Shown here one piece after another: positions 5,624 to 25,913 of a stretch of DNA of 64,000 nt. The notes beneath the pieces were generated by a model. The model searched no databases. It was not told the origin of the DNA and saw only the letters and a list, made by a program, of their open reading frames with translations. Source of the DNA: a virus (Duplodnaviria > Heunggongvirae > Uroviricota > Caudoviricetes); IMG/VR virus record IMGVR_UViG_3300031760_000008, positions 76,337-140,336 of that record, one strand, 5' to 3'. A program made the translations under genes and the position numbers. Within the stretch, counting starts at the first letter, position 1; each line of letters begins with the position of its first letter.

Positions 5624-5657
5624 AAAATAAAAGAGATCTAATTAATTAGATCTCTTA
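5624..5657 (-). terminator. Intrinsic terminator after 5671..6453
   Basis: aagagatctaat/attagatctctt. Confidence 0.7.
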
Positions 5658-5670
5658 ATATTATTTAATT

Positions 5671-6453
5671 TTAGTCTAATATTTCTTCTGCTTGATCTAA
5701 AGCATTATCATAATCATCTTGAGAAATATCAGCAGATAATTTAATCCAATCTGTTCCATTATATCTATAAAATCCTTCAAAATTATAAGTATTAGATGTT
5801 TCTGTATATACTACTGCTTTATCTCCTTCTTGAGCTTCAGCTTCTTCCATATGAGCTACTGTATCATATATTTTAAATTGAAAATCACATTTATTTTGTA
5901 ATAAAGCTTCTAATTCTTCTATTTTAGCTTGTTGGGCAGTTAATTCTTCTGTTAAATCTTCTCCACCTTCATGAGTACCTTCTATACCTAAAACAGTTGA
6001 TCCTTTTGCAATTTGACTTGCTTGTAATCCTATAGCATTAGCTATACCTGAATAACTTTGTATTATAGAGACCCAAATATTATTGTCCATGTCATCTCTT
6101 AATAATAAACCATTAGTATTTAAACCACATTTTACTCTTATTTTATTTGCTCCAGCTACTTTTTCTGCAGGATAACTAGCATCACCGAAATTATATTGTT
6201 GTAAAGGTTTTAAAGTACCTGTTATTTTTTCTCCATCTACATAAGCAGTATAACCTTCTTCAATTCTTTCTGCTGTAGCTGTTGCATCTGATGTGTCTGT
6301 TCCAGTTTCAATATTAGCTATTTTTTGAGCATAAGATCTAAAAGTATCATTATCATCAACTTCTTGTCCTTTAGATATAATAGCATTTTTAATACTTGTT
6401 TTAGTGCCTTCTAGATAGTCTAATTTTTCCATTATTGTTGATTCTTCATTCAT
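5671..6453 (-). CDS. Fibre-family adaptor protein
   Basis: KGQEV adaptor, DTSDATATA...TAYVDGEKITG and IAKGSTVLGIEGT motifs shared with the other paralogs. Confidence 0.65.
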   Translation of the reverse strand: MNEESTIMEKLDYLEGTKTSIKNAIISKGQEVDDNDTFRSYAQKIANIETGTDTSDATATAERIEEGYTAYVDGEKITGTLKPLQQYNFGDASYPAEKVAGANKIRVKCGLNTNGLLLRDDMDNNIWVSIIQSYSGIANAIGLQASQIAKGSTVLGIEGTHEGGEDLTEELTAQQAKIEELEALLQNKCDFQFKIYDTVAHMEEAEAQEGDKAVVYTETSNTYNFEGFYRYNGTDWIKLSADISQDDYDNALDQAEEILD

Positions 6454-6455
6454 AC

Positions 6456-6884
6456 TTAGATCACCTCCCCATTAAGAGTATCTAAAGCTGTACTTAATGT
6501 GCCTATTTTTTCATTTACTTCTTCTACTTTAGTATTTACTTCATCAATAGCTCCTTGAACAGTATCAGCTTCCATTCCTGATTCTGTATTATCATAAACA
6601 GTTTCTTCAGCCGTCATTTTGACTTCTTCTAGTTGTTGAGATGTTGTATTATAATGATATAGTCTATTTGTCTCATTAACATAATATAATTTATTTGTTA
6701 AATAATTTGATAATCCATTAGCTTCTGATAAAGTATTTATGAATATAATATCTGTAACTTTTGTTCTATTATTTCCAACGTCCATATATACTTCTTGAGT
6801 ATCTTTAACAAAAGTCATTTGACCATCAACTTGTGGTACATTTGTTAAACTATTTGAATTACATCTACTAAATTTAACTTTCAT
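6456..6884 (-). CDS. Small tail-associated protein
   Basis: GQMTFVKDTQEVYMD...NTLSE...LYYVNETNRLYHYN resembles the N-terminus of 38366..41320 (GNMYMCLDTQRLYYD...NTLND...TYYCWEDNSLWLWN). Confidence 0.5.
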   Translation of the reverse strand: MKVKFSRCNSNSLTNVPQVDGQMTFVKDTQEVYMDVGNNRTKVTDIIFINTLSEANGLSNYLTNKLYYVNETNRLYHYNTTSQQLEEVKMTAEETVYDNTESGMEADTVQGAIDEVNTKVEEVNEKIGTLSTALDTLNGEVI

Positions 6885-7542
6885 TTCTTTCTTTCTCCTC
6901 TCTTAAAATTACTGCTTCTTGATCCCATATTTCTCTATCTCTAGCTAAACAAGCAGTTAATTGTGTATAATATCTTTGACTAAATGCTTCTTCCATATTA
7001 GGACATCCTACTTCATCTAAATAATCTTTAAACCATAAAGTATTTCTTCTTAAATTAACTCCTCCTTGTAATATAGAAAAATTATCTTTATGTTGAACTA
7101 AACAAGGTCTATATATAACATGATTAATTCTTAAATTTTGTAAAATTCTATTAGTTAAAGCTGCCCAAGATCTATGAAGATCAGGTTTATACATTTTAGT
7201 CATTTCATCTGCTATAATCTTTGCCATTCCTTTTGGATAATATGTACATTGATTATAATCAAATCTATCTGTATAATGAGTGGTGAAATATAATTCAGGT
7301 TTTGTAAAGAAATTTATAATTTTATTTGGAAATTGAGAAATTACCTTCTCAATTTCCTCTTTAAAATTCTTACATAAAATTAAATCATCTTCTAGTAATA
7401 CTGAATCATAATCATTTATATAATATAAATCTTTTATAAAAGCTTTAACAGGTATATGTTCTGTATCTGTAAGTATTTCATAATCTATATCATAATTAAA
7501 TTTTCTTTCACCTGTAGTTCTGACAAAATATTTTATTTGCAT
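6874..7542 (-). CDS. Glycosyltransferase, GT-A fold, GT25-like (copy 1)
   Basis: LLEDDL DxD-type motif and PCLVQH motif; paralog of 8853..9509 and 12179..12823. Confidence 0.65.
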   Translation of the reverse strand: MQIKYFVRTTGERKFNYDIDYEILTDTEHIPVKAFIKDLYYINDYDSVLLEDDLILCKNFKEEIEKVISQFPNKIINFFTKPELYFTTHYTDRFDYNQCTYYPKGMAKIIADEMTKMYKPDLHRSWAALTNRILQNLRINHVIYRPCLVQHKDNFSILQGGVNLRRNTLWFKDYLDEVGCPNMEEAFSQRYYTQLTACLARDREIWDQEAVILREEKERNES

Positions 7543-7559
7543 AAATTTTCTACCTCTTT
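7511..7559. repeat. 49-bp exact direct repeat, copy 1 (copy 2 at 9478..9526)
   Basis: cctgtagttctgacaaaatattttatttgcataaattttctacctcttt spans the RBS and first codons of GT copies 1 and 2. Confidence 0.9.
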
Positions 7560-7566
7560 CTTATTT

Positions 7567-8853
7567 TTAAGGATTAGCAGGAGTTACAGTTATAGCAGGA
7601 TGATTTAAGATATCAAATGTAAAAGGTTCATATCTATCACTAGCTACCTCTAATGATAATTGAATTTTATTATTTTTAAAAATAACCATTCTAGGACAAT
7701 CTGATGGATATGTAATTTGTACCTTTCCTGATTGTCCTGTATTATTCATAACTCGTAATAATCCAATTAAATCTCTAACATATATGGCAGAAGGAGGAAG
7801 TGTTCTACTATTTAAGCTCAAAGGAACATTAAAACAGTTAATTATGGCTCCAGTGCCATTATTCCACATAGAACCTCTCATATATACAATACCTTCACCC
7901 GCATCTATAACTAGTCCTATTCCTCTTCCATTATAATAATCATCAGGATCAACAGTAGTAGCAAGTTTAAGACCATAGTTAAATGAACTACCTCCTCCAT
8001 ATTGAACTAAATCCATCATATATTCATCAGGAATACCATCTTCCATAGCATCAGCTATTTCAGCTAAATCTATAGTTATTATATCTCCAGGCTTGATAAA
8101 TGTAATACTAGAATTAGATGCTTCTCCAGTAAATTCACCTTCTACATCAAATAAAGTATAACCTTGTCTTAAATTATCAGGAGTTATATTAAATTTATTT
8201 ATTATATCTGGAAATTCTATATTAACTTGTATATCAGTATCTTTACTTATAAGTATAGTTTTATCACTGAAATAATCAGCATTAGGATGACTTTCTACTC
8301 TTAATACAGTTCCACTAAAATCTTCTATATTATCTATTATTAACTCATCTAAAGTACCTTCTCTATAATCTTCTCCAGAAATATCTGCTGTTCCTGTAAC
8401 ACCTAATTTAGTCACACCTTGCTTTAAATCACCTGGAGTTAAATTTATAGCTTGAGTTATTTTTGAATAAGGAACATCTGCAATCATTTTAGTATTAGTA
8501 TTAATAGCCACATTATCAGGACCACTTCCTGCTGTAGATAATTGAGAGATAGCACTTATTTTTCCATGCGAAGTATCATCTGTTACAGTCATTAGATTTT
8601 CATTTAACCTTACAGAGCTACTATGATTTCTAAAATCAGATAAACTTCCCCTTACCTTTACTCCTTTAACATAAGCTGAGGTATTCACAACAATATCTGA
8701 GGCAGTAGCATTTGCATCTGAGGTATCAATTCCTTCATAGGAACCTGTAACATCAAATATTGTTACATCTTTTTTAATATTTGAAGCTACTATTTTATTT
8801 GTTTTTTCAGACAGTATAGCTTCTGCTTTATTTTTAATTGTTTGTTTAGACAT
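7567..8853 (-). CDS. Fibre-family protein (MSKQTIK adaptor) with variable C-terminus
   Basis: [46 protein letters not shown] adaptor shared with 9541, 11174, 26161 and 31545 ORFs. Confidence 0.65.
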   Translation of the reverse strand: MSKQTIKNKAEAILSEKTNKIVASNIKKDVTIFDVTGSYEGIDTSDANATASDIVVNTSAYVKGVKVRGSLSDFRNHSSSVRLNENLMTVTDDTSHGKISAISQLSTAGSGPDNVAINTNTKMIADVPYSKITQAINLTPGDLKQGVTKLGVTGTADISGEDYREGTLDELIIDNIEDFSGTVLRVESHPNADYFSDKTILISKDTDIQVNIEFPDIINKFNITPDNLRQGYTLFDVEGEFTGEASNSSITFIKPGDIITIDLAEIADAMEDGIPDEYMMDLVQYGGGSSFNYGLKLATTVDPDDYYNGRGIGLVIDAGEGIVYMRGSMWNNGTGAIINCFNVPLSLNSRTLPPSAIYVRDLIGLLRVMNNTGQSGKVQITYPSDCPRMVIFKNNKIQLSLEVASDRYEPFTFDILNHPAITVTPANP

Positions 8854-9509
8854 TACAAATTATCTCCTTTCTTATTTTTATATTTTTCATACCAAGTATT
8901 TCTATCTTTTTGTAATAATTCTTTTAATTTTAATCTATTTTCACGTTTAAAAGCTTGTATCATATCAATTCCCAATTCATCTAAATAATCTTTAAAATAG
9001 AGTGTATTTCTTTCATATATAAAACTTGTTTTTTGAAAAATAGATTTTCCATCAATATGTTGTACTAAACTAGGTCTATATATTAAATGAGGAATACCTA
9101 ATCTATTTAAAGATATACTTAATAAATTACCATATGATTGTTTGATACCTTGTTTATACATAGGTAACATTTGTTCTGCTAATAATTTTCCTAATCCTTT
9201 AGGAAAATATGTACACTGATTATATGAAAAGCTTTCACTATAATGGGTTGTATAGTAAAACTCAGGTACTGTAAAAAAATTTATAATTGTGTTAGGATAT
9301 TCAGAAATAACTTTTTCAATTTCTTCTTTAAAATTTTTGCATAATACTAAATCATCTTCAAGTAATACTGCATCATATTCACTTATAATATTTAAAGCAT
9401 TAATAAAACTTTTTACTCCATCATATTCTTTATCAATAAGTGCTTTATAATCTATATCATAATTAAAATCTCTATCTCCTGTAGTTCTGACAAAATATTT
9501 TATTTGCAT
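8853..9509 (-). CDS. Glycosyltransferase, GT-A fold, GT25-like (copy 2)
   Basis: LLEDDL and PSLVQH motifs; stop overlaps the start of 7567..8853. Confidence 0.65.
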   Translation of the reverse strand: MQIKYFVRTTGDRDFNYDIDYKALIDKEYDGVKSFINALNIISEYDAVLLEDDLVLCKNFKEEIEKVISEYPNTIINFFTVPEFYYTTHYSESFSYNQCTYFPKGLGKLLAEQMLPMYKQGIKQSYGNLLSISLNRLGIPHLIYRPSLVQHIDGKSIFQKTSFIYERNTLYFKDYLDELGIDMIQAFKRENRLKLKELLQKDRNTWYEKYKNKKGDNL

Positions 9510-9540
9510 AAATTTTCTACCTCTTTATCTTTTCATATAT

Positions 9541-11151
9541 CTAAATCTCTTCGATTGTTATAAATTCTGATTGAATTCTTGCATATTTATCTACAACAAA
9601 ATCAGGTGAGCCATCTCCTATATATAGATATCTGTCATTGAAACTACCACTACACTCAGCATACCATGGTATATCTTCAAATGATGCATCATCTATTGCT
9701 TCTAAATATTCAATAAATCTTGAAAGTTTCATAACACGAGATTCTTCAGGATCCCACTTCCATTCGCTTGTAGGTACAATAGTTTGTAATTCATGGTAGC
9801 TACCATGAACATCGAGAAAAGATAGAATAGATCCTGTTGTAGATACTTCAAGAGCTAACCATGCACCTCTATCTTCAGGATAATAGCCACTAAAAAATGA
9901 AGCTAATATAATAGTAGGGGCGCCAGAGCTATTATTTATAAACACCTTTTTATCTCCATTATATCGTAAATAATCATTTAAAGCATTAATAATAACTTGT
10001 TTATTTATAGTTATCAATGATCCAGCTCTAATATAAAGATGAGGAATTATATGATCATTAAATCTAATATATTGTAATGGAGTAATAATGTATTTATAAG
10101 TTTGATCAGAAAATATTATTTTTAAATTTTGATTATCAGGATTAATTGTGAATGTAGTATATTGATCATATAATAAATCACTTAATGGAATATCTATTAC
10201 TCCATATCCTCTAAATATTTGTACTAATTGATCTACTGTTATATTAGAACCAGGACAAGACATATCTTGAATTACATAACTTCCGATTATTGTTAAATCA
10301 TCATAAGACTCAGCTAAAGTTGCTATAGTTACTCTAAATTGATCTGTATTATATTCAAAATAAACCGTAGTATTATTTCCTTGAGCTAATATTATAGTTG
10401 GAGAATTTGCACTTTGTATATGATGAATATATTTATTTGAAAAAGAAGCATAATTATGTGATTCATAAAAAACATTACCTAGAGCAGTAAAGTCAATTTC
10501 AAGATACATATTACTATATATGTCTTGATGATATCCATCATAATCAACAAATCTCCAACCAGCATCACTTACATATTCTAAATATTTTAGGTTTCTTTGA
10601 TCATTCAATTTATTAAGTACGTATATATCACCATCTGAAGCAGTATTAGGTAATTCTGTTATATCATATATAATGTTAAGATTACCATTACCTTTAAATG
10701 TTCCTGTTACTCCTAAAACTTTAGCATCTTTCTTTATATTTTCAGGTTGTAAATGTATAGCTTCAGCTATCATATCTTGTGGAATATTAGTATACATGTG
10801 AGTATTATCATCTATAACCACACTTTCATTACTACCTTCTCCTGATCTTGAATCTACTTTTATATAATCAATTGATTTTTCAGAAGTCGTCTCACATGAT
10901 ACAAGCTCTAAATTTATATCTTGACCTCTACCTTCATTAATTCGTCCAGTTACTTTAATTCCATTAACATATGCCGTAGTATTTTTTACTAAATCAGTTT
11001 CAGTAGCTGTTGCATCTGATGTATCTATCCCTTCATATGTTCCTGTAACATCAAATATAGTAGTATTTTTCTTTATATTTTCAGGAATGATTTTAGAAGT
11101 TTTTTCAGCTAATATAGAATCAGCTTTTTGTTTTATTGTTTGTTTAGACAT
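9541..11151 (-). CDS. Fibre-family protein (MSKQTIK adaptor) with variable C-terminus
   Basis: Shared adaptor [35 protein letters not shown]; second PENIKKDAKVLGVTGT repeat. Confidence 0.65.
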   Translation of the reverse strand: MSKQTIKQKADSILAEKTSKIIPENIKKNTTIFDVTGTYEGIDTSDATATETDLVKNTTAYVNGIKVTGRINEGRGQDINLELVSCETTSEKSIDYIKVDSRSGEGSNESVVIDDNTHMYTNIPQDMIAEAIHLQPENIKKDAKVLGVTGTFKGNGNLNIIYDITELPNTASDGDIYVLNKLNDQRNLKYLEYVSDAGWRFVDYDGYHQDIYSNMYLEIDFTALGNVFYESHNYASFSNKYIHHIQSANSPTIILAQGNNTTVYFEYNTDQFRVTIATLAESYDDLTIIGSYVIQDMSCPGSNITVDQLVQIFRGYGVIDIPLSDLLYDQYTTFTINPDNQNLKIIFSDQTYKYIITPLQYIRFNDHIIPHLYIRAGSLITINKQVIINALNDYLRYNGDKKVFINNSSGAPTIILASFFSGYYPEDRGAWLALEVSTTGSILSFLDVHGSYHELQTIVPTSEWKWDPEESRVMKLSRFIEYLEAIDDASFEDIPWYAECSGSFNDRYLYIGDGSPDFVVDKYARIQSEFITIEEI

Positions 11152-11168
11152 ATTTAAAACTCCTTTCT
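11144..11168. repeat. 25-bp exact direct repeat, copy 1 (copy 2 at 12156..12180)
   Basis: ttagacatatttaaaactcctttct spans the RBS and start of two fibre paralogs. Confidence 0.85.
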
Positions 11169-11173
11169 TAAAA

Positions 11174-12163
11174 TTATAATACAGTAAATATATTATAATT
11201 TAGTGTATTAATTGTAGCTGATAAATTAGTTCCTTTAATATCCATTGTACTTAAAGGAGATTGGAATTCAAAAGATACTCCTCCTTGTCCTAATGTTACC
11301 GAATATACCTTATAATAATTATTAAAACTAGTTATAAAATCAGCTACCTTCATTGGATATGGATAATCAAAACAGCTATCAGCTTGAACTATATCGCACA
11401 TTTTATACATAATGTTTCCATCAGGAGTACAAACTTGAGCACTTATAATAGTATTATTTATTGAAATTATTATCTGAGCATTATCATAAACGTTAACTTG
11501 ACTACCATTTCTATGTGTATAGGTTCCTTTTGCTACAACTACTGCAGGAACATATCCAGACCCTTCTTCAGTATTTAAATATTTTTGTTTATCAGTAGAT
11601 GAAAGTTGAGCATCCATAGCAGCAGCTAGTTGTCGTAAACTTATAGCAACTCCATCATCTGGATATAATGTTATAGAATGTTGACCTTCTCCTTCATAAG
11701 TTCCAGTTACACCTAAAATCTTTGTGTTCTTCTTAATAAGTCCTGGTTGTAAATTAATTGCAGATGTAATTTTACTATAAGGAAGCTCTCCACGCATTCT
11801 TGTAGAATTATCTATAACTATATTTTCAGGATCACTACCATTATCTTCTTTTTTAGATTCATATCTAAGCATATTTAAATAAGATTCATCTGTTATAGTT
11901 AATTGATCTTTATCAGTTTGTATTACTTTGGAAGCTCCTCTAAAATCAGCTAAATCTCCTGTTATTTTAACTCCATTAACATATGCTGTAGCAGGTTTTA
12001 TTATATCAGCAGCTACTGCTGTAGCATCAGAAGTGTCTATTCCTTCATAAGAACCTGTAACATCGAATATAGTCACATTTTTCTTAATATTAGGAGCTAT
12101 TATTTTACTTGTTTTTTCTGATAATATAGCTTCTGCTTTTTGTTTTATTGTTGTCTTAGACAT
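11174..12163 (-). CDS. Fibre-family protein (MSKTTIK adaptor) with variable C-terminus
   Basis: Shared adaptor [34 protein letters not shown]. Confidence 0.65.
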
Positions 12164-12178
12164 ATTTAAAACTCCTTT

Positions 12179-12823
12179 CTATTCAATATCTTTATACCAA
12201 ATTAATCTATCGCGATCTAATAATTTTTGTAATTTTGCTTGATTTTCTTTAGTATATGCTTGTATCATATCAATACCTAACTCATCTAGATAATCTTTAA
12301 AATAAATTGTATTTCTACCTAATTTTTTAGCGTCTCTAGTTGATATAGCATCAATATGTTGTACTAATGTAGGTCTATATATTAAATGAGGAATACCATT
12401 TTCAACCAATACAATATTTAGTAATGAACCATATCTTTGCTCTCTTGGATATTTTATTTCATCTTCATACATCTCCATCATTTTATCAGCTAAAAACTTA
12501 GTTAACCCTCTAGGAAAATATGTACACTGATTATATATAAATATATCAGAAAAATGAGTGGTATAATATCTTGAAGGAGAACTAAAAAAGTTAATTATAT
12601 TATTTGGATATTGTTTAATAACTTTTTCAATTTCTTCCTTAAAATTCTTACATAATACTATATCATCTTCCATTAAAACTGCATTATAATCATTTATATA
12701 GTATAAAGCATCAATATAAGATTTAACATAAAGATGCTTATAATCTATTATTTTTTCATGTTCTATCGGAAGATCATAAGGTCTTCCTTCCATGGTTCTT
12801 ACAAAATATTTTATTTTATCCAT
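12179..12823 (-). CDS. Glycosyltransferase, GT-A fold, GT25-like (copy 3)
   Basis: LMEDDI and PTLVQH motifs; IKYFVRT N-terminus as in the other two copies. Confidence 0.65.
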   Translation of the reverse strand: MDKIKYFVRTMEGRPYDLPIEHEKIIDYKHLYVKSYIDALYYINDYNAVLMEDDIVLCKNFKEEIEKVIKQYPNNIINFFSSPSRYYTTHFSDIFIYNQCTYFPRGLTKFLADKMMEMYEDEIKYPREQRYGSLLNIVLVENGIPHLIYRPTLVQHIDAISTRDAKKLGRNTIYFKDYLDELGIDMIQAYTKENQAKLQKLLDRDRLIWYKDIE

Positions 12824-12880
12824 AAATATTCCTTTATATAATTTTAGATAAGGCTCTATATTTCAAGAGCCTCATATCAT

Positions 12881-15800
12881 TTAGTTTCCTAATATATCAT
12901 CTAATATATCTTCTACTTCCTCTTCAGTTCCACCTAATCCATTATATTCATCATCAGTTCCCATTACTTGATTTAAATCATTAAAAGTATCTATATATTC
13001 TTGAGGATCTGGTGTAGTTCCTCCTTCAGTTTGTTCAGGAATTCCGATTAATTTTAGATTTTCTAATTCTACATCTTTCATGAATGACTCATATAAGGTT
13101 GATTGTGTAGTATCTGAAGTAAAGTTCTTCAATATTTTAGCCATTATTATAACATTCTGATCATTTTCAACTGTTACATATTTTTGTAATGTATATGTTC
13201 CAGTAGGTACATATAAAGTATTTTGAGCATATGTACTTATTTGTGTTTGAAGATCTGCTATTAAATTATTGATAATAGATTGTAATGTTTCAGTTGCTTG
13301 AGCAGTATCATCTAAATTAATTTTTGAAGCATCTAATTGTACATTTTTATTAGCATCTGCTTGAGTATTATTGACTGTATCAACCTTACCAAAACTATTT
13401 TTATCATATACAACTTGATCACCATTAGCATCTGTACCATATACTTTATTTATTTCATCTGTCAAAGTAACTTTTGTATCTACAATTTCTTTAACTTCTC
13501 TTATTGCTGGAGATAATTTTGTACTTGTTAATCCTGAAGTACTTGGATCAAATATTACATTTTCAGGTTGAACTCTAAATTTAATTTTATTATTCCAATC
13601 CTGATCATTTTCCCAAATTGTATCTCCATAATCAGCATTACCAAAAGCTATTTGAATATCTCTATTTTCAAAAGCTAGTTCTAAATCTTTAGTTCCTCCG
13701 CCGCTTTCAGTTCTATAATAATTAACTAATTCAATTGAATTAAAATCAACATAAGTGCTTTTTTGAGAGTGAATTTCTATTCCACTTTGATATATATTTT
13801 TATAATCTGTTGAAGTCGCATCAGTAGCAGCAAACATATGAGCAGCTTTTGATTTATCAAATTTAATACTATTTAAATTATTATCAGCAGCAATTCTAGC
13901 AGTTTCTTCAGCATCTATATTATCTTGTAATGCATCATCAGCTGCAATTCTAGCATTTTCTTCAGCAGTTATATCTGCTGTTATTGAGGTTTCTAAATCA
14001 CTAAATTGTTCTTGAAGATCTTGTTGATCAGTAATATCTCCTTTAATTGTTCCCCATACAGCTTGAGCATGTTTCTTAAATGTCACTGCAACACATGTTT
14101 GTAATGTATCGTTTATAGATTCTACTCTTGCCCATGTTCCTTCTGGATCTGATATAATATCATGAACTTCTACATTCACTTTATCAGTAGGAGTTAATGT
14201 ATTAAGAGGAATTATATTTTCACTTGGTATAGTTGTATTTAATGTTTCAGTTGTTACAAAGTAATTTACATCAGTATCTAGATTTGCTTTTAAATCTATT
14301 ACTCCAGTATCTCGATCTCTAGTTGCAACAATTGTATTATCACTAGAAATTACTTTTAATATTCCATTAGAAGTAGTTTCTGTTGAAGGATCTACACTTG
14401 TAACTCCTAATTTAATAATTTCATTATTTTGTAAAGCTTCTGTTGCAATAGTTCCTACAACTTTATTATTAGTTAAATTCGCAAATGTTTTATTAGCTTT
14501 ATTAGCTTGTAAATCTGTTATAGATTGTAAGTTTCTTGATATATTTTGATTTGCTGTTGTTATATCATCTGCATTTGCTTGCACAAGTTCATCTAAGTTT
14601 GTTAAATGAGTTTCTTGTGTAGCATTTTGAGTTTGTAATCTTCCTATATCATAATTTGCATCTGTCATATCAGCTTGCAAATCTTGAATATCATGTGTAT
14701 TATCAGCTATTTGTTGAGCATGCAATGCAAGTGTAGTATCATGAGATGCATCATGAGTTTGAAGAGTTGTTATATTATCCTCATTTGCTGATATTCTAGT
14801 TTCAGCATTTGTTAATCTTGTATCTTGTTGAGCATTTTTATCATCTATTGTAGTTGAATCAATTACTATATGATCTGCATCTTGAAATCTTGTTTGAATT
14901 TGTCCTTGAGCTTTGAAATGTAAGTGTGATATAGTAGGTGTTTCTGTTGTAGTATTTTTAGTAGTTATTTTTAAAGTAGGTTCATTAGATTCTGTAGCAG
15001 CTACTATTTCTGAAACAAGTCCTGGAGCTATACTCTTATTAATTTTCTTATTATCCATAGCTGTTTCTTTTGTATTTATAGTGTTATTAAGAGTTGCCAC
15101 TTCTTGATCTATTCTTTGATTTGTTACAGATTCTTCTCCATCTATTTTATCATTTAGTGTTTGAATTTCTTGATCTATTCTAGTGTTTATTTCAGATTCT
15201 TTAGTTGTAATAGTTGTATTTAGAGTTTCAACTTCATCATCAATTCTATCATTTATAGTATCTACATGTCTTAACATTGTATTATTTAAAGTATTAACAG
15301 CATTATTTATTTTTGTATTATAATCTATAATAGAATTATCAATTCTTGTTCCTAACGCTGTATCTCTAGTTTTAGATTCTGCTTCAACTCTTTCTACTTC
15401 AGTATTAGTATTTGCAATTTGTTGATTAATTTCTGCTTCTTTAGTATTGATTGTATTATAAATTTCAGATTCTTTAGTATTTATAACTCCATAAATTTCA
15501 GACTCTTTAGTGTTGATCGTATTATTAATTGTAGCTTCTTTTTCATTTATAGTATTATAAATCTCTGATTCTTTAGTATTGATTGTATCTGTAAGATCTT
15601 GTACTTCTTGATCAATTCTAGAATTAATAGTATCTACATTATTTTGTAATTCTTGTTCAGATACAACATCTATTTCTCTTCTTTCTTCAGCAGATGTACC
15701 ATCTTCAAGTGAAAATTTATCTTCAATCATTGTTATATGACCAGTTGTTTCATTATATTCGAATTGAACATCTCTAACTATTCTAGCTCCTTGTCCAGCT

Positions 15801-16750
15801 ACAACTTTATCAACTTTTGCATCTAAAGTTTGTCTTACTGTTCCTTTTGAAGGATCTGAATCTGTATAATTAATATCTGATGCATCTATTTGAACATTTT
15901 TATTAAGATCAGCTTGTTTATGATTTACAGTATCAAGCTTTCTTAAATCATCTTTATTATAAAGATATTGCTCACCATATTCATTAGTTCCATAAACTTT
16001 ATTTTCTCTGGAAGTTTTCTTTACTTTTTCACTATCAAGATCAGCAAGTTCATCAATAGCTGCTTTAACATTATCAGATTCTAATCCTGATGTTAAGTGA
16101 TTATATTTAATATCATTTGCATGTAATGATGCAAGTAATACCCAATGAGCTTTAGTAAATGAACCTTCTGCTACAAATTCTTCTTCTAAGCATCTATATA
16201 ATTTATTATCATAATAGCATATTTCATTAATGTAATATGTTTTACCAGCTTGATAATCATATATATGAGAATAAGATTGAAGATTTAAAGTTCTTATTCC
16301 TTCTTCATCTATTGTATAAACTCCCTGTAAAGAGTTGTCATTAGATTTAATTCTTAAATAAGCTTGTCTTGCTCCTCCAGTTGTTACATCTTTAGTAACA
16401 CGATTAATTAATGCTAAAGATCCAGATTCATCTGTTATAGTAATATTTTCAATTAAACCATTAGCATTTTCAGTGAATATGCTCTTATCTACTTTTTCAT
16501 TAAGAGCATCTTTTAATACTTTACTATCTGATACTTCACCAATTAAATTTTCATAAGTAACTAGATACTCTAATCCAAAATGTTCGTATGGTAAATCAGC
16601 CCAATTAGATTGACCATCTCCACGTTTAACACGATGTGTATCATCTTCAACACCGTATTCACTTAGAGCAAGTATTGGATTATTCATCATCCAGTTTGTA
16701 CTAGTATCATGTCTTAAAATGATAGTGTAATATACTTTTTCTTCGTCCAC
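12881..16750 (-). CDS. Long tail fibre with Mtd_N-like N-terminus and extended coiled coil
   Basis: IILRHDTSTNWMMNNPILALSEYGVEDDTHRVKRGDGQSNWADLPY matches the major-tropism-determinant N-terminal motif; CBM5/12-like YQAGKTYYINEICYYDNKLYRC; 11-aa coiled-coil repeats. Confidence 0.7.
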   Translation of the reverse strand: MDEEKVYYTIILRHDTSTNWMMNNPILALSEYGVEDDTHRVKRGDGQSNWADLPYEHFGLEYLVTYENLIGEVSDSKVLKDALNEKVDKSIFTENANGLIENITITDESGSLALINRVTKDVTTGGARQAYLRIKSNDNSLQGVYTIDEEGIRTLNLQSYSHIYDYQAGKTYYINEICYYDNKLYRCLEEEFVAEGSFTKAHWVLLASLHANDIKYNHLTSGLESDNVKAAIDELADLDSEKVKKTSRENKVYGTNEYGEQYLYNKDDLRKLDTVNHKQADLNKNVQIDASDINYTDSDPSKGTVRQTLDAKVDKVVAGQGARIVRDVQFEYNETTGHITMIEDKFSLEDGTSAEERREIDVVSEQELQNNVDTINSRIDQEVQDLTDTINTKESEIYNTINEKEATINNTINTKESEIYGVINTKESEIYNTINTKEAEINQQIANTNTEVERVEAESKTRDTALGTRIDNSIIDYNTKINNAVNTLNNTMLRHVDTINDRIDDEVETLNTTITTKESEINTRIDQEIQTLNDKIDGEESVTNQRIDQEVATLNNTINTKETAMDNKKINKSIAPGLVSEIVAATESNEPTLKITTKNTTTETPTISHLHFKAQGQIQTRFQDADHIVIDSTTIDDKNAQQDTRLTNAETRISANEDNITTLQTHDASHDTTLALHAQQIADNTHDIQDLQADMTDANYDIGRLQTQNATQETHLTNLDELVQANADDITTANQNISRNLQSITDLQANKANKTFANLTNNKVVGTIATEALQNNEIIKLGVTSVDPSTETTSNGILKVISSDNTIVATRDRDTGVIDLKANLDTDVNYFVTTETLNTTIPSENIIPLNTLTPTDKVNVEVHDIISDPEGTWARVESINDTLQTCVAVTFKKHAQAVWGTIKGDITDQQDLQEQFSDLETSITADITAEENARIAADDALQDNIDAEETARIAADNNLNSIKFDKSKAAHMFAATDATSTDYKNIYQSGIEIHSQKSTYVDFNSIELVNYYRTESGGGTKDLELAFENRDIQIAFGNADYGDTIWENDQDWNNKIKFRVQPENVIFDPSTSGLTSTKLSPAIREVKEIVDTKVTLTDEINKVYGTDANGDQVVYDKNSFGKVDTVNNTQADANKNVQLDASKINLDDTAQATETLQSIINNLIADLQTQISTYAQNTLYVPTGTYTLQKYVTVENDQNVIIMAKILKNFTSDTTQSTLYESFMKDVELENLKLIGIPEQTEGGTTPDPQEYIDTFNDLNQVMGTDDEYNGLGGTEEEVEDILDDILGN
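15428..15586 (-). repeat. Imperfect 33-bp (11-aa TINTKESEIYN) tandem repeat inside the fibre gene
   Basis: TINTKESEIYN/TINEKEATINN/TINTKESEIYG/VINTKESEIYN/TINTKEAEIN in the translation. Confidence 0.8.
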
Positions 16751-23336: not shown

Positions 23337-24578
23337 TTAATATTTTAATTTTTGTCCTGGATATATTGTATATGGAGATCTGATACCATTTTTATCTGCT
23401 ATTGATTTCCAATTAACTCCAAGTTTTGCACCTATTCCAGATAATGTATCTCCTGATTTAACTGTATATGTTCTAGATGAAGAGCTTCCTCCTCCTAATT
23501 TCTTATTTACAATATCTTGTATAACACTGAAATTATATCCAGCTTCTTCTAATTTTCTTCTTCTATCGTCTCCATTACTCCATTTACCAGCTATAACTTC
23601 ATCAGCTATTGTTTCATTTGATTTCTTTGGAGTAGATCCTCCTACTAATTCATTTACTTTATTCTGAACAGCATTATAATCATATCCAGCCTGAGTTAAT
23701 CTATTTTTACGATCATCACCATTTCCCCATTGTCCTGCAATTACTTCTCTAGCGATTTCATCAATAGACTTTTTAGCTGGTTGAGATCCGCCTTTTAATA
23801 TTTCATTTACTCTAGCTTGCACTGCATTATAATCATATCCTGCATTTATTAATCTATTCTTTCTATCATCACCATTTCCCCAAGCTCCATTTATAACTTC
23901 TCTTGCTACTTCATCTATTGATTTAGTTGGAGCAGGTCTTGGATTAGTTCCGCCCTTAACTATAAAATCTTTATAGCCATAATTCATATCTAATCTTCCT
24001 GAATATCCATTTAAATATCCATCAGATGTAAATTGCCATATACCACAACGAGAAGCATTTTCACCTTCAGAAGAAGTATTCATTCCTGTTTGTTTTCCTC
24101 CTCTTGTTGGCCAGTGAGCTACCCATTTATCAAAAGCTGTTAATCCTGCAAGTTGATTATTAAACCAAGATGAACTAGCATATACCATTGCATAGTATCC
24201 TGCATTCTCGAAAGCTCTACATTCAATTGTACATATATCTCTTAATGTTTGATTTGAAGGCATTCCATTTCTTTTCTTATAGCCATCTGCATCTTCCATA
24301 TCAATTACTAAGAAGTTAGGTTTAACTGCATATGAATTAGCTAAATTAATAACATTTTGAGCTTCTTGAGCAGCTCTATCAGTATTTAAAGCATACGAAT
24401 AAATATATAAACCATATGGTTTTCCGTTCTGTATTGCTAAATTAACATTTCTATCAACTTTACTATCTTTACTAATACCTGCATGAGATCTAAATATGAA
24501 AAAATCTACTTGATTTGCCAAAGCTCCTATATTAATATCTCCCTGCCAAGCACTAATATCTGGTCCAATATATGCCAT
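23337..24578 (-). CDS. Endolysin: GH25 muramidase, 3 Cpl-7 (CW_7) repeats, LysM
   Basis: PDISAWQG, IDMED and WQFTSDG GH25 motifs; three KSIDEVAREVIxGxWGNGDDRKNRL repeats; YTVKSGDTLSGIG..IYPGQKL LysM. Confidence 0.9.
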   Translation of the reverse strand: MAYIGPDISAWQGDINIGALANQVDFFIFRSHAGISKDSKVDRNVNLAIQNGKPYGLYIYSYALNTDRAAQEAQNVINLANSYAVKPNFLVIDMEDADGYKKRNGMPSNQTLRDICTIECRAFENAGYYAMVYASSSWFNNQLAGLTAFDKWVAHWPTRGGKQTGMNTSSEGENASRCGIWQFTSDGYLNGYSGRLDMNYGYKDFIVKGGTNPRPAPTKSIDEVAREVINGAWGNGDDRKNRLINAGYDYNAVQARVNEILKGGSQPAKKSIDEIAREVIAGQWGNGDDRKNRLTQAGYDYNAVQNKVNELVGGSTPKKSNETIADEVIAGKWSNGDDRRRKLEEAGYNFSVIQDIVNKKLGGGSSSSRTYTVKSGDTLSGIGAKLGVNWKSIADKNGIRSPYTIYPGQKLKY

Positions 24579-24752: not shown

Positions 24753-25913
24753 TTATTTATAGGCATTTATATTAACATATGCTACTCTTCCAGTTGCAAC
24801 AGCTATAACTTTATCTACGTTACTTGAAGTATTTTCTAATATCTTAACAGTTGTATTTGCTTTATATGTATATACAGTACCTGTTAAATCTGGTTTTGAA
24901 TACATATAAGTTGTAGATTTAAATTTTCTAGTTTCACCTACAGTGTTTCTTCCTGATGGTTTTGAATCAGCTAAATATTGTGTTGATACCCAACCACTAA
25001 CAGGACTTTCTATACTGCTCCAATCTCCTGATTGACCTGTTACAATTACTTGAGTACCTTTTTGTAAGCTACCTATTACATTTCCTCCAGGATTATCTCT
25101 AACATTTAAAGGTAATGAATTTGTATTTACATACATTGTTCTTTTTGTTACAGGTTCTGAATAAGTTAAATAATAATTTGCTACCCATTTATCTGATCCT
25201 ATTCTAGCCCAATCACCTTGTACTTCATATACTAATACTTGAGTTCCTTTTGGTAATGATCCTATTACATCTCCATTAGGAGCATTTCTTACATTTAAAT
25301 TTAAAGATTGTGTATTAACCCAAGCTACTTTTGGATCTGGTTGAGGTCCAGGAGCAGGTGGTTCTATACCTCCAATATTAAATGCAAAGAATCTTTGAGC
25401 ATTTGAATTAGCTTTAAATTGATCTATTTGTACATATGCACTTGTTCCTTCTAAATCTACTAATCCTTGTCTTCCAGGTCTATCAAATTTTCCTGCATAT
25501 AAATAAGGATCATATATACAAATTTCATCCCCTCTATATCCTATAGCAAGTATAAAATGTCCATCAGTAGTCCATAAACCAGGTCCACAGCAAATTACAA
25601 CTGCCCAACCTTTTTTAACATAATCAAATGTTTCATATGAACTAGATAATCTTTTATATTCTAATCCCCATCTTTCTGCTACATAGGGATATAAATCATC
25701 GCTTGTTCCTCCAGGTACTCTAAATCCTTCATTAATACAAATATCTCCCATTTGATCAGGATATATGATTTCTTTAGAACTAGATACTACCATAGCAGCA
25801 CATGTAGGACCACATCCACTTGTTCCTATTGTTTTATTTTCATAACCAGGATAAGCAGGATATGGGTGGTTTTTCCATCTTGAATCTGTTTGATTGTAAT
25901 AAACCTTACTCAT
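24753..25913 (-). CDS. C39-like cysteine peptidase with SH3b domains (second cell-wall hydrolase)
   Basis: YYNQTDSRW..SGCGPTCAAMVVS..GHFIL catalytic motifs; LNVRxxPxGxVIGSLxKGTQV SH3 repeats. Confidence 0.8.
   Translation of the reverse strand: MSKVYYNQTDSRWKNHPYPAYPGYENKTIGTSGCGPTCAAMVVSSSKEIIYPDQMGDICINEGFRVPGGTSDDLYPYVAERWGLEYKRLSSSYETFDYVKKGWAVVICCGPGLWTTDGHFILAIGYRGDEICIYDPYLYAGKFDRPGRQGLVDLEGTSAYVQIDQFKANSNAQRFFAFNIGGIEPPAPGPQPDPKVAWVNTQSLNLNVRNAPNGDVIGSLPKGTQVLVYEVQGDWARIGSDKWVANYYLTYSEPVTKRTMYVNTNSLPLNVRDNPGGNVIGSLQKGTQVIVTGQSGDWSSIESPVSGWVSTQYLADSKPSGRNTVGETRKFKSTTYMYSKPDLTGTVYTYKANTTVKILENTSSNVDKVIAVATGRVAYVNINAYK

Follow-up and report, generated by a model that had tools for sequence, protein, structure and literature searches.

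Why should a phage interleave glycosyltransferase genes with the genes of its tail fibres, and on what would the encoded enzymes act? The question is raised by a 64,000-nucleotide stretch of DNA (hereafter the window; bases 76337-140336 of a 140.8-kb IMG/VR virus record) from a large uncultured cattle-rumen phage, in which three paralogous glycosyltransferase (GT) genes, GT1, GT2 and GT3, stand among fibre-like genes. Judged by gene order, the natural unit of this array is a fibre gene followed by a GT gene, a two-gene cassette that is translationally coupled or nearly so. The answer that we put forward, tentatively and as somewhat less probable than its contrary, is that the phage glycosylates its own fibre proteins, which would then be the acceptors of the three enzymes.

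Transcription is on the minus strand and thus runs from right to left in the window. In that order, the genes and the two hairpins that bracket the gene run are:

12881-16750, minus strand: long fibre, 1289 amino acids, tail-fibre-like with coiled-coil repeats; its N-terminus matches the tail-fibre PHROGs 31660, 23595 and 21562; upstream partner of GT3.
12851-12872, strand not assigned: G+C-rich hairpin, possibly an attenuator or RNA end, in the 57 nucleotides that separate the long fibre from GT3.
12179-12823, minus strand: GT3, 214 amino acids, predicted soluble GT-A glycosyltransferase, GT25-like.
11174-12163, minus strand: fibre 329, shared N-terminal module (N module) and a unique C-terminal part; no GT directly after it.
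9541-11151, minus strand: fibre 536, shared N module and a unique C-terminal part of 400 amino acids; upstream partner of GT2.
8853-9509, minus strand: GT2, a paralogue of 218 amino acids whose stop overlaps the start of fibre 428.
7567-8853, minus strand: fibre 428, shared N module and a C-terminal head of about 180 amino acids; upstream partner of GT1.
6874-7542, minus strand: GT1, a paralogue of 222 amino acids with an 11-nucleotide overlap with the next gene.
6456-6884, minus strand: fibre-like or virion protein of 142 amino acids with a coiled-coil C-terminus, matching PHROGs 2137 (tail fiber) and 25416 (virion structural protein) and resembling part of the long fibre (30% identity).
5671-6453, minus strand: fibre 260, 260 amino acids, whose copy of the shared N module is more divergent.
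5631-5656, minus strand: terminator-like hairpin with an 11-bp stem and a T-rich tail, closing the run.

An earlier note on this DNA, made from the sequence alone, had described three paralogous GTs in an array after the long fibre, and both the coordinates and the mutual identity of the GTs (51–61%) bear this out, as does the one-base overlap (TAATG) that it had seen between the stop of GT2 and the start of fibre 428. Its picture of an alternating array needs amendment: the interleaving stands, but the unit is fibre then GT and not GT then fibre, and the run also includes the 142-residue gene and fibre 260. The remaining array genes are separated by gaps of 15–57 nucleotides, and the distances between neighbouring fibre and GT genes range from −1 to +57 nucleotides on the same strand throughout. 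The array opens a fibre block of about 27 kb, in which 13 open reading frames (ORFs) carry the shared N module. The record as a whole is 69% complete according to CheckV, has a G+C content of about 27%, and holds 97 of its 98 ORFs of at least 150 amino acids on one strand. Since the six-gene array was recovered in five independent ENA assemblies, and its DNA is present in runs from 12 studies of the bovine gut or rumen in addition to the probable source, it is not an assembly artefact. No RNA run was listed among those that contain it.

The evidence for the cassette comes from relatives. Across 44 IMG/VR loci with a member of the GT family whose neighbours were examined, close coupling of the GT to its upstream gene is nearly universal. 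Down to about 50% GT identity, the gene in this position is either the long fibre or one with the shared N module; members at 38–45% identity adjoin or follow other small modular fibre-like genes, with collagen-like tail fibres at one locus. In L004, L006 and L049, an orthologue of GT3 comes next after the long fibre. In L006, a 97%-identical GT2 orthologue follows the same fibre C-terminus (fibre 536, 86% identical), and in L012–L014 a GT that is 72% identical to GT1 follows a full-length homologue of fibre 428 (31.6% identical), the pair lying elsewhere in the fibre block. L006 is 93–99% identical to the window on both flanks, yet it lacks exactly fibre 428 and GT1, with the joint at the 3' end of GT2. 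From these comparisons we read the unit as fibre then GT, and GT copy number as changing by whole cassettes. The co-variation of GT and fibre genes that the earlier note had expected is thus found in part: gain or loss of a GT gene goes with that of a fibre gene, while the N module itself usually occurs without a GT (see below). We found no paper describing GT genes paired with tail-fibre genes as repeated cassettes, and PHROG annotation of the neighbours of GTs in distant loci was mostly empty.

The fibres of the array share residues 1 to about 160 at 40–55% identity, and beyond this point no mutual similarity is seen by BLAST, in keeping with the earlier observation of a common N-terminus (put at some 150 residues) and complete divergence afterwards. 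In particular, BLAST shows no C-terminal domain common to the three fibres that precede a GT. The N module itself consists of two repeat units; in the close relative L006, fibres lack about 110–118 residues between these units, as if lost by recombination between repeats (window 11030-12180 compared with L006:10644-11441). Paralogous copies of the GT genes and of the N module share 70–80% DNA identity over 200–900 nucleotides, and deletions in relatives end within these repeats. The C-terminal part of fibre 329 is 78% identical in L006. In the long fibre, 33-nucleotide tandem repeats (window 15425-15616) encode the heptad-like unit NTINTKESEIY in the coiled-coil shaft. The model of fibre 428 is poor overall (predicted local distance difference test, pLDDT, 48), only its C-terminal 180 residues being moderately confident. 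A lectin or LamG-like fold was considered for this domain and discarded, as the best matches (Z ≤3.7) were too weak to use, and a search of the ESM Atlas with it gave leads only. The N-module profile retrieved nothing useful among the sequences of solved structures, and NCBIfam held no match for the array GTs or fibres. Against 50,697 GenBank phage records, tblastn with GT3, tblastn with the fibre N module and blastn with the DNA of the array region all returned no match.

What kind of proteins are the GTs? Their pairwise E-values lie between 1e-66 and 1e-87, and the motifs noticed earlier as common to them (IKYFVRT, LxEDD and PxLVQH) are invariant among the three, in the longer forms VL(L/M)EDD and RPxLVQH for the last two. 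R9, D27, E52-D53-D54 and H156 are invariant in 82 homologues, down to 39% identity. An AlphaFold model of GT3, computed with the alignment of these 82 homologues, reached a pLDDT of 95 and shows the invariant residues where strands 1, 2 and 4 end and within a late strand. In GT-A enzymes, such strand-end positions usually bind nucleotide and metal, and the acidic DxD-type motif that follows strand 4 of the GT-A fold is present in GT3 as E52-D53-D54. Foldseek and VIA-align place the model among GT-A enzymes, as the earlier note had supposed, the nearest structures being those of GT25 and GT13. VIA-align Z scores are 12.7 for mimivirus R655, 12.6 for GnT-I and POMGNT1, 12.1 for COLGALT1 and 10.7–10.8 for vaccinia H3 and A197 of Sulfolobus turreted icosahedral virus (STIV); the GT25 structures 9evj and 9crz score 12.1–12.7. 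Among predicted viral structures, the top match is a glycosyltransferase of Microbacterium phage Hendrix (template modelling (TM) scores 0.70/0.78), ahead of gp87 of Mycobacterium phage Ardmore and numerous GT25 proteins of giant viruses. The model also aligns, at TM 0.68, with a bacterial cluster of the ESM Atlas whose members are all (100%) PF01755 proteins.

At the level of sequence, these relationships are faint. PHROGs returned a weak glucosyltransferase match for the GTs, and the profile of the GTs found no match among the sequences of solved structures. With Pfam PF01755, the GT25 family, GT3 scores 19 bits, GT1 14 bits and GT2 none, the weak matches being centred on the EDD region; all three remain below the gathering score of 24 bits, and 21 of the 82 homologues reach E ≤0.01 (best 1e-4). 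We therefore speak of GT25-like proteins rather than of GT25: as modelled, the GTs form a GT25-like family with a GT-A fold that stands outside Pfam GT25 by score. A maximum 19-residue hydropathy of at most 1.0 in all three indicates that none has a transmembrane segment. Given the GT-A fold, the invariant residues and the lack of a hydrophobic segment, they are probably soluble, cytoplasmic, metal-dependent glycosyltransferases, an activity that we infer from the model.

The GT family is compact, almost entirely metagenomic and almost purely viral, with 615 cluster representatives (E ≤0.001) among 1.84 billion. Some members (P0121, P0253 and L021:2689-3780) are fusions in which a domain of this family shares one polypeptide with one or two different GT-A domains, which suggests that some phages might build oligosaccharides stepwise. 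In-frame TGA codons occur in GT homologues and in one dehydrogenase homologue (L020:10001-10640, L022:8734-10060, L026:6068-6700, L036:9998-10640 and G003:C1:109514-110167), and one of them aligns with a tryptophan of relatives (FEWNQC); the phages concerned probably read TGA as an amino acid.

Would the phage also provide for the sugar? Outside the window, its genome encodes a nucleotide-sugar dehydrogenase-like protein of 247 amino acids (G000:C1:40219-40962; L055:1150-1893, minus strand). It comprises an NAD-binding and a central domain, with a C-x-x-K-D motif close to its end, and lacks the C-terminal nucleotide-sugar-binding domain. In P0152, a GT is joined to the corresponding two domains (NAD-binding and central) of a UDP-glucose/GDP-mannose dehydrogenase, and in L021 the same kind of dehydrogenase gene directly follows a GT; the 247-residue protein is 53% identical to the L021 gene product and 52% identical to the C-terminal half of P0152. 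Of the 10 other GT-bearing records, 6 have a dehydrogenase homologue. Counting the phage itself, the proportion is 7 of 11, compared with 0 of 5 among GT-free records (Fisher p = 0.034, with no control for relatedness). Also outside the window, at the far end of the fibre block, a gene of 348 amino acids from glycosyltransferase family 2 (the family, not the paralogue GT2; G000:C1:64905-65951) lies 29 nucleotides downstream of a DUF285 protein of 241 amino acids (both genes, G000:C1:64905-66706; L048:919-2720, minus strand). This is a fourth pair of an adhesin-like protein followed by a GT. The dehydrogenase-like gene and the family-2 gene have weak matches in NCBIfam, far below threshold, to the teichuronic-acid enzymes TuaD and TuaG.

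Put together, these elements lead to the proposal that fibres are glycosylated by the enzymes encoded beside them. Mechanistically, the GT cassettes would be expressed within a structural, presumably late, gene block, and the GTs would transfer sugar from a nucleotide sugar onto the phage's own fibres during particle assembly, before or while the fibres trimerise, so that part of the fibre set would then carry a glycan. The donor could be a uronic-acid-type sugar, made with the phage's truncated nucleotide-sugar dehydrogenase. What the analysis shows is the fold with its conserved catalytic-type motifs, the lack of membrane segments, the close linkage of the genes, a cassette that is kept and gained or lost as a unit, and the link to the dehydrogenase. 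From these the proposal infers that the enzymes are active, what the donor is, that a fibre is the acceptor, and any benefit, be it stability in the protease-rich rumen, altered binding or masking. Since the T4-type late promoter motif TATAAATA is not enriched (42 matches against 37 expected), late expression is deduced from the gene neighbourhood alone; a scan for sigma-70-like promoters gave fewer sites than in shuffles. In its most extended and rather doubtful form, the proposal makes the fibre and GT cassettes mobile two-gene units, in which each receptor-binding fibre brings its own glycosylating enzyme, supplied with a phage-made, possibly uronic-acid-type nucleotide sugar through the truncated dehydrogenase; lacking its own nucleotide-sugar-binding domain, the latter may work together with a GT.

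Several observations weigh against this proposal. First, the fibre N module is very common, with at least 477 stretches in IMG/VR, and only 5 of the 78 best IMG/VR N-module loci have a GT within 10 kb, all of them on contigs already known; the N module therefore does not need a GT. Five large phage records with the N module, three of them complete, contain no member of the GT family, and in the phage's own genome 3 of the 13 N-module ORFs are near a GT, fibre 329, fibre 260 and about ten more fibres of the block being without one. Second, the GTs are far more conserved than the adjoining fibre tips (99% for GT1 against 66% for the tip; 94% against 41% in L007/L008), and a GT3-type clade at 66–70% identity follows unrelated fibres. 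On this second ground, even if the fibre is the acceptor, recognition of its variable tip by the GT appears unlikely from the sequences at hand. Third, the fibre sequences show no Ser/Thr-rich tracts or collagen repeats that would be obvious acceptor sites. Fourth, more distant members of the family occur in other settings, at 23–33% identity beside or fused to ParB-like and DNA methyltransferase genes, and at 46% identity in an integrase/Rep element on a 422-kb contig. Lastly, the agreement between GT and fibre, with a homologous upstream fibre in 49 of 53 GT pairs at ≥90% identity, 18 of 46 at 65–90% and 3 of 949 below 65%, is inflated by common descent and shared synteny among related phages. 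The suggestion of the earlier note that each GT glycosylates a cognate fibre thus keeps the linkage within the cassette and is otherwise weakened, as GT sequence does not track the divergence of the tips, the N module is mostly free of GTs, and distant members are found elsewhere. Immune shielding and receptor mimicry, which the earlier note also named, are guesses that lie beyond these data.

The strongest competing explanation, close to the alternative of a modified host receptor given in the earlier note and in our view unlikely, is that the GTs work at the cytoplasmic face on a glycopolymer of the host cell envelope, be it wall teichoic or teichuronic acid, a capsule or an S-layer glycan. 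The target could be the receptor bound by the neighbouring fibre, and its modification would stop progeny from sticking to debris or exclude superinfecting phages. There are precedents: in P22-like phages the gtrABC seroconversion GT genes adjoin tailspike genes, and wall teichoic acid is the substrate of TarP, a soluble GT-A enzyme encoded by a prophage. Conserved GTs beside diverging tips fit a conserved acceptor that is not of the phage, and the sub-threshold TuaD and TuaG matches point the same way. Published readings of phage GT25 and other GTs, too, usually favour modification of the host surface or of DNA (PMC12801897). The movement of the cassette as a unit fits this explanation and fibre glycosylation equally well. 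The layout of the genes fits it poorly: the soluble GTs are embedded in, and translationally coupled with, structural genes and not placed in a lysogeny or early module, they have no membrane segments of the Gtr type, and a function that converts the host would hardly be expected, in a cell near lysis, to be spread over three paralogues that each go with one fibre gene.

Alternatively, the GTs may act on another acceptor on the phage side (capsid, tail or other virion proteins, or the bases of phage DNA), their place among the fibre genes being historical; we judge this improbable. It would account for family members outside fibre clusters, with ParB and methyltransferase neighbours, in ParB-like fusions, before a prohead protease gene and in an integrated element, and the mycobacteriophage GTs indeed target capsid and tail tube rather than fibres (PMC12363180). 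Nevertheless, no gene of the thymidylate-synthase or hydroxymethylase family was found in the 140-kb record, nor in four of the five GT-bearing near-complete relatives, including a complete 208.7-kb genome. Glycosylation of DNA through hydroxymethyl bases is therefore unlikely, and enzymes that modify DNA would be expected early and not inside a fibre block. The fibre-then-GT unit, kept at 72% (GT) and 32% (fibre) identity and lost as a unit, argues for a fibre-linked role in this clade.

Least probable is that the GT-fold proteins are mainly non-enzymatic, serving as fibre assembly chaperones or adaptors or as homology blocks for recombination of fibre cassettes: a place directly downstream of a fibre gene is classic for tail-fibre assembly genes, the fold matches include vaccinia H3, a GT-A-fold protein with a structural role, and GT and N-module repeats (70–80% DNA identity) contain the ends of deletions in relatives, but the EDD, His, Arg and Asp residues are invariant in 82 sequences, and such catalytic-type residues together with the fusion or adjacency to a dehydrogenase point to sugar-nucleotide chemistry.

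Since the GT family also occurs with ParB and methyltransferase genes, in an integrase element and in fusions, its acceptors may differ between clades. The distant clade associated with ParB and methyltransferase genes comprises the proteins P0171, P0182 and P0200 and the loci L016, L038–L041 and L045–L047, and its gene neighbourhoods hint at a different, possibly DNA-linked role. The member at 46% identity (L134:7001-7615, on an ENA contig of 421,770 bases) lies among small genes without assigned function, between a tyrosine integrase and a Rep_trans gene; the element is probably integrated in a bacterial genome and might help to identify hosts. On the strand of the fibre block of the window, and a few kb upstream of it, are the gene of an amidase-type endolysin that carries cell-wall-binding repeats (23337-24578) and another gene related to amidases (24753-25913).

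If fibres were indeed glycosylated by dedicated enzymes, fibre sequence alone would miss a determinant of receptor binding and host range, and engineered fibres might need their partner enzyme. Virion glycosylation, proven so far for the capsid and tail tube of mycobacteriophages, would extend to the organelles of host recognition and to gut and rumen phages. Were the cassettes also mobile, they would be the first system for glycosylating tail fibres in phages of rumen bacteria and would add a new level of control over host range or stability. If host glycans were modified instead, each receptor-binding protein would share its cassette with an enzyme for altering that protein's receptor. In either case, the family offers a simple test system of one fibre and one enzyme.

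How does the array compare with known systems? GtrABC and TarP belong to lysogeny-linked modules that act on host glycans, the Gtr proteins being membrane-bound. The likeness lies in a GT gene beside the gene of a receptor-binding protein and, for TarP, in a soluble GT-A enzyme; unlike the Gtr modules, the array has soluble GTs, in three paralogues, inside a structural gene block. The array GTs lie within a one-strand run of structural and fibre genes and not beside an integrase or attachment module, an integrase not having been searched for genome-wide. The tail-fibre assembly chaperones (T4 gp38 and gp57A, Tfa of lambda and Mu) resemble the GTs in position only, as small genes downstream of a fibre gene and travelling with it. 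Their fold appears unrelated, whereas the array GTs keep the residues of nucleotide-sugar enzymes; no chaperone family was found for them in PHROGs or Pfam, and all strong fold matches are GT-A enzymes.

With the GT25 proteins of PF01755 (the bacterial lipooligosaccharide galactosyl- and glucosyltransferases Lic2A and LgtB, human COLGALT1 and mimivirus R655), a family that transfers Gal or Glc from UDP-sugars to lipooligosaccharide or hydroxylysine acceptors, the array GTs share the GT-A fold and the (L)EDD motif, but they are shorter (about 215 amino acids) and their Pfam scores are below threshold. Mimivirus has GT25-like and related enzymes of its own that serve its collagen-like proteins (L230, R699, R655; PMC9546862). 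Here the parallel is one of virus-encoded GT25-like or LH3-like GTs that decorate the surface fibres of the virus itself, with R655 as the top structural match; unlike mimivirus, the phage has a bacterial host, and its three array fibres come without collagen repeats or a lysyl hydroxylase partner. The mycobacteriophages offer a precedent, since glycosylation of capsid and tail-tube proteins by their GTs is proven (Che8 gp110, Corndog gp38, Myrna; PMC12363180). Both systems have phage-encoded GT-A enzymes near structural genes, and actinophage GTs align to the GT3 model at TM 0.59–0.78, a resemblance without a tblastn match in the 50,697 GenBank phage records. In contrast to the mycobacteriophage systems, the GTs of the rumen phage are interleaved with fibre genes as repeated cassettes, and their action on virion proteins is putative.

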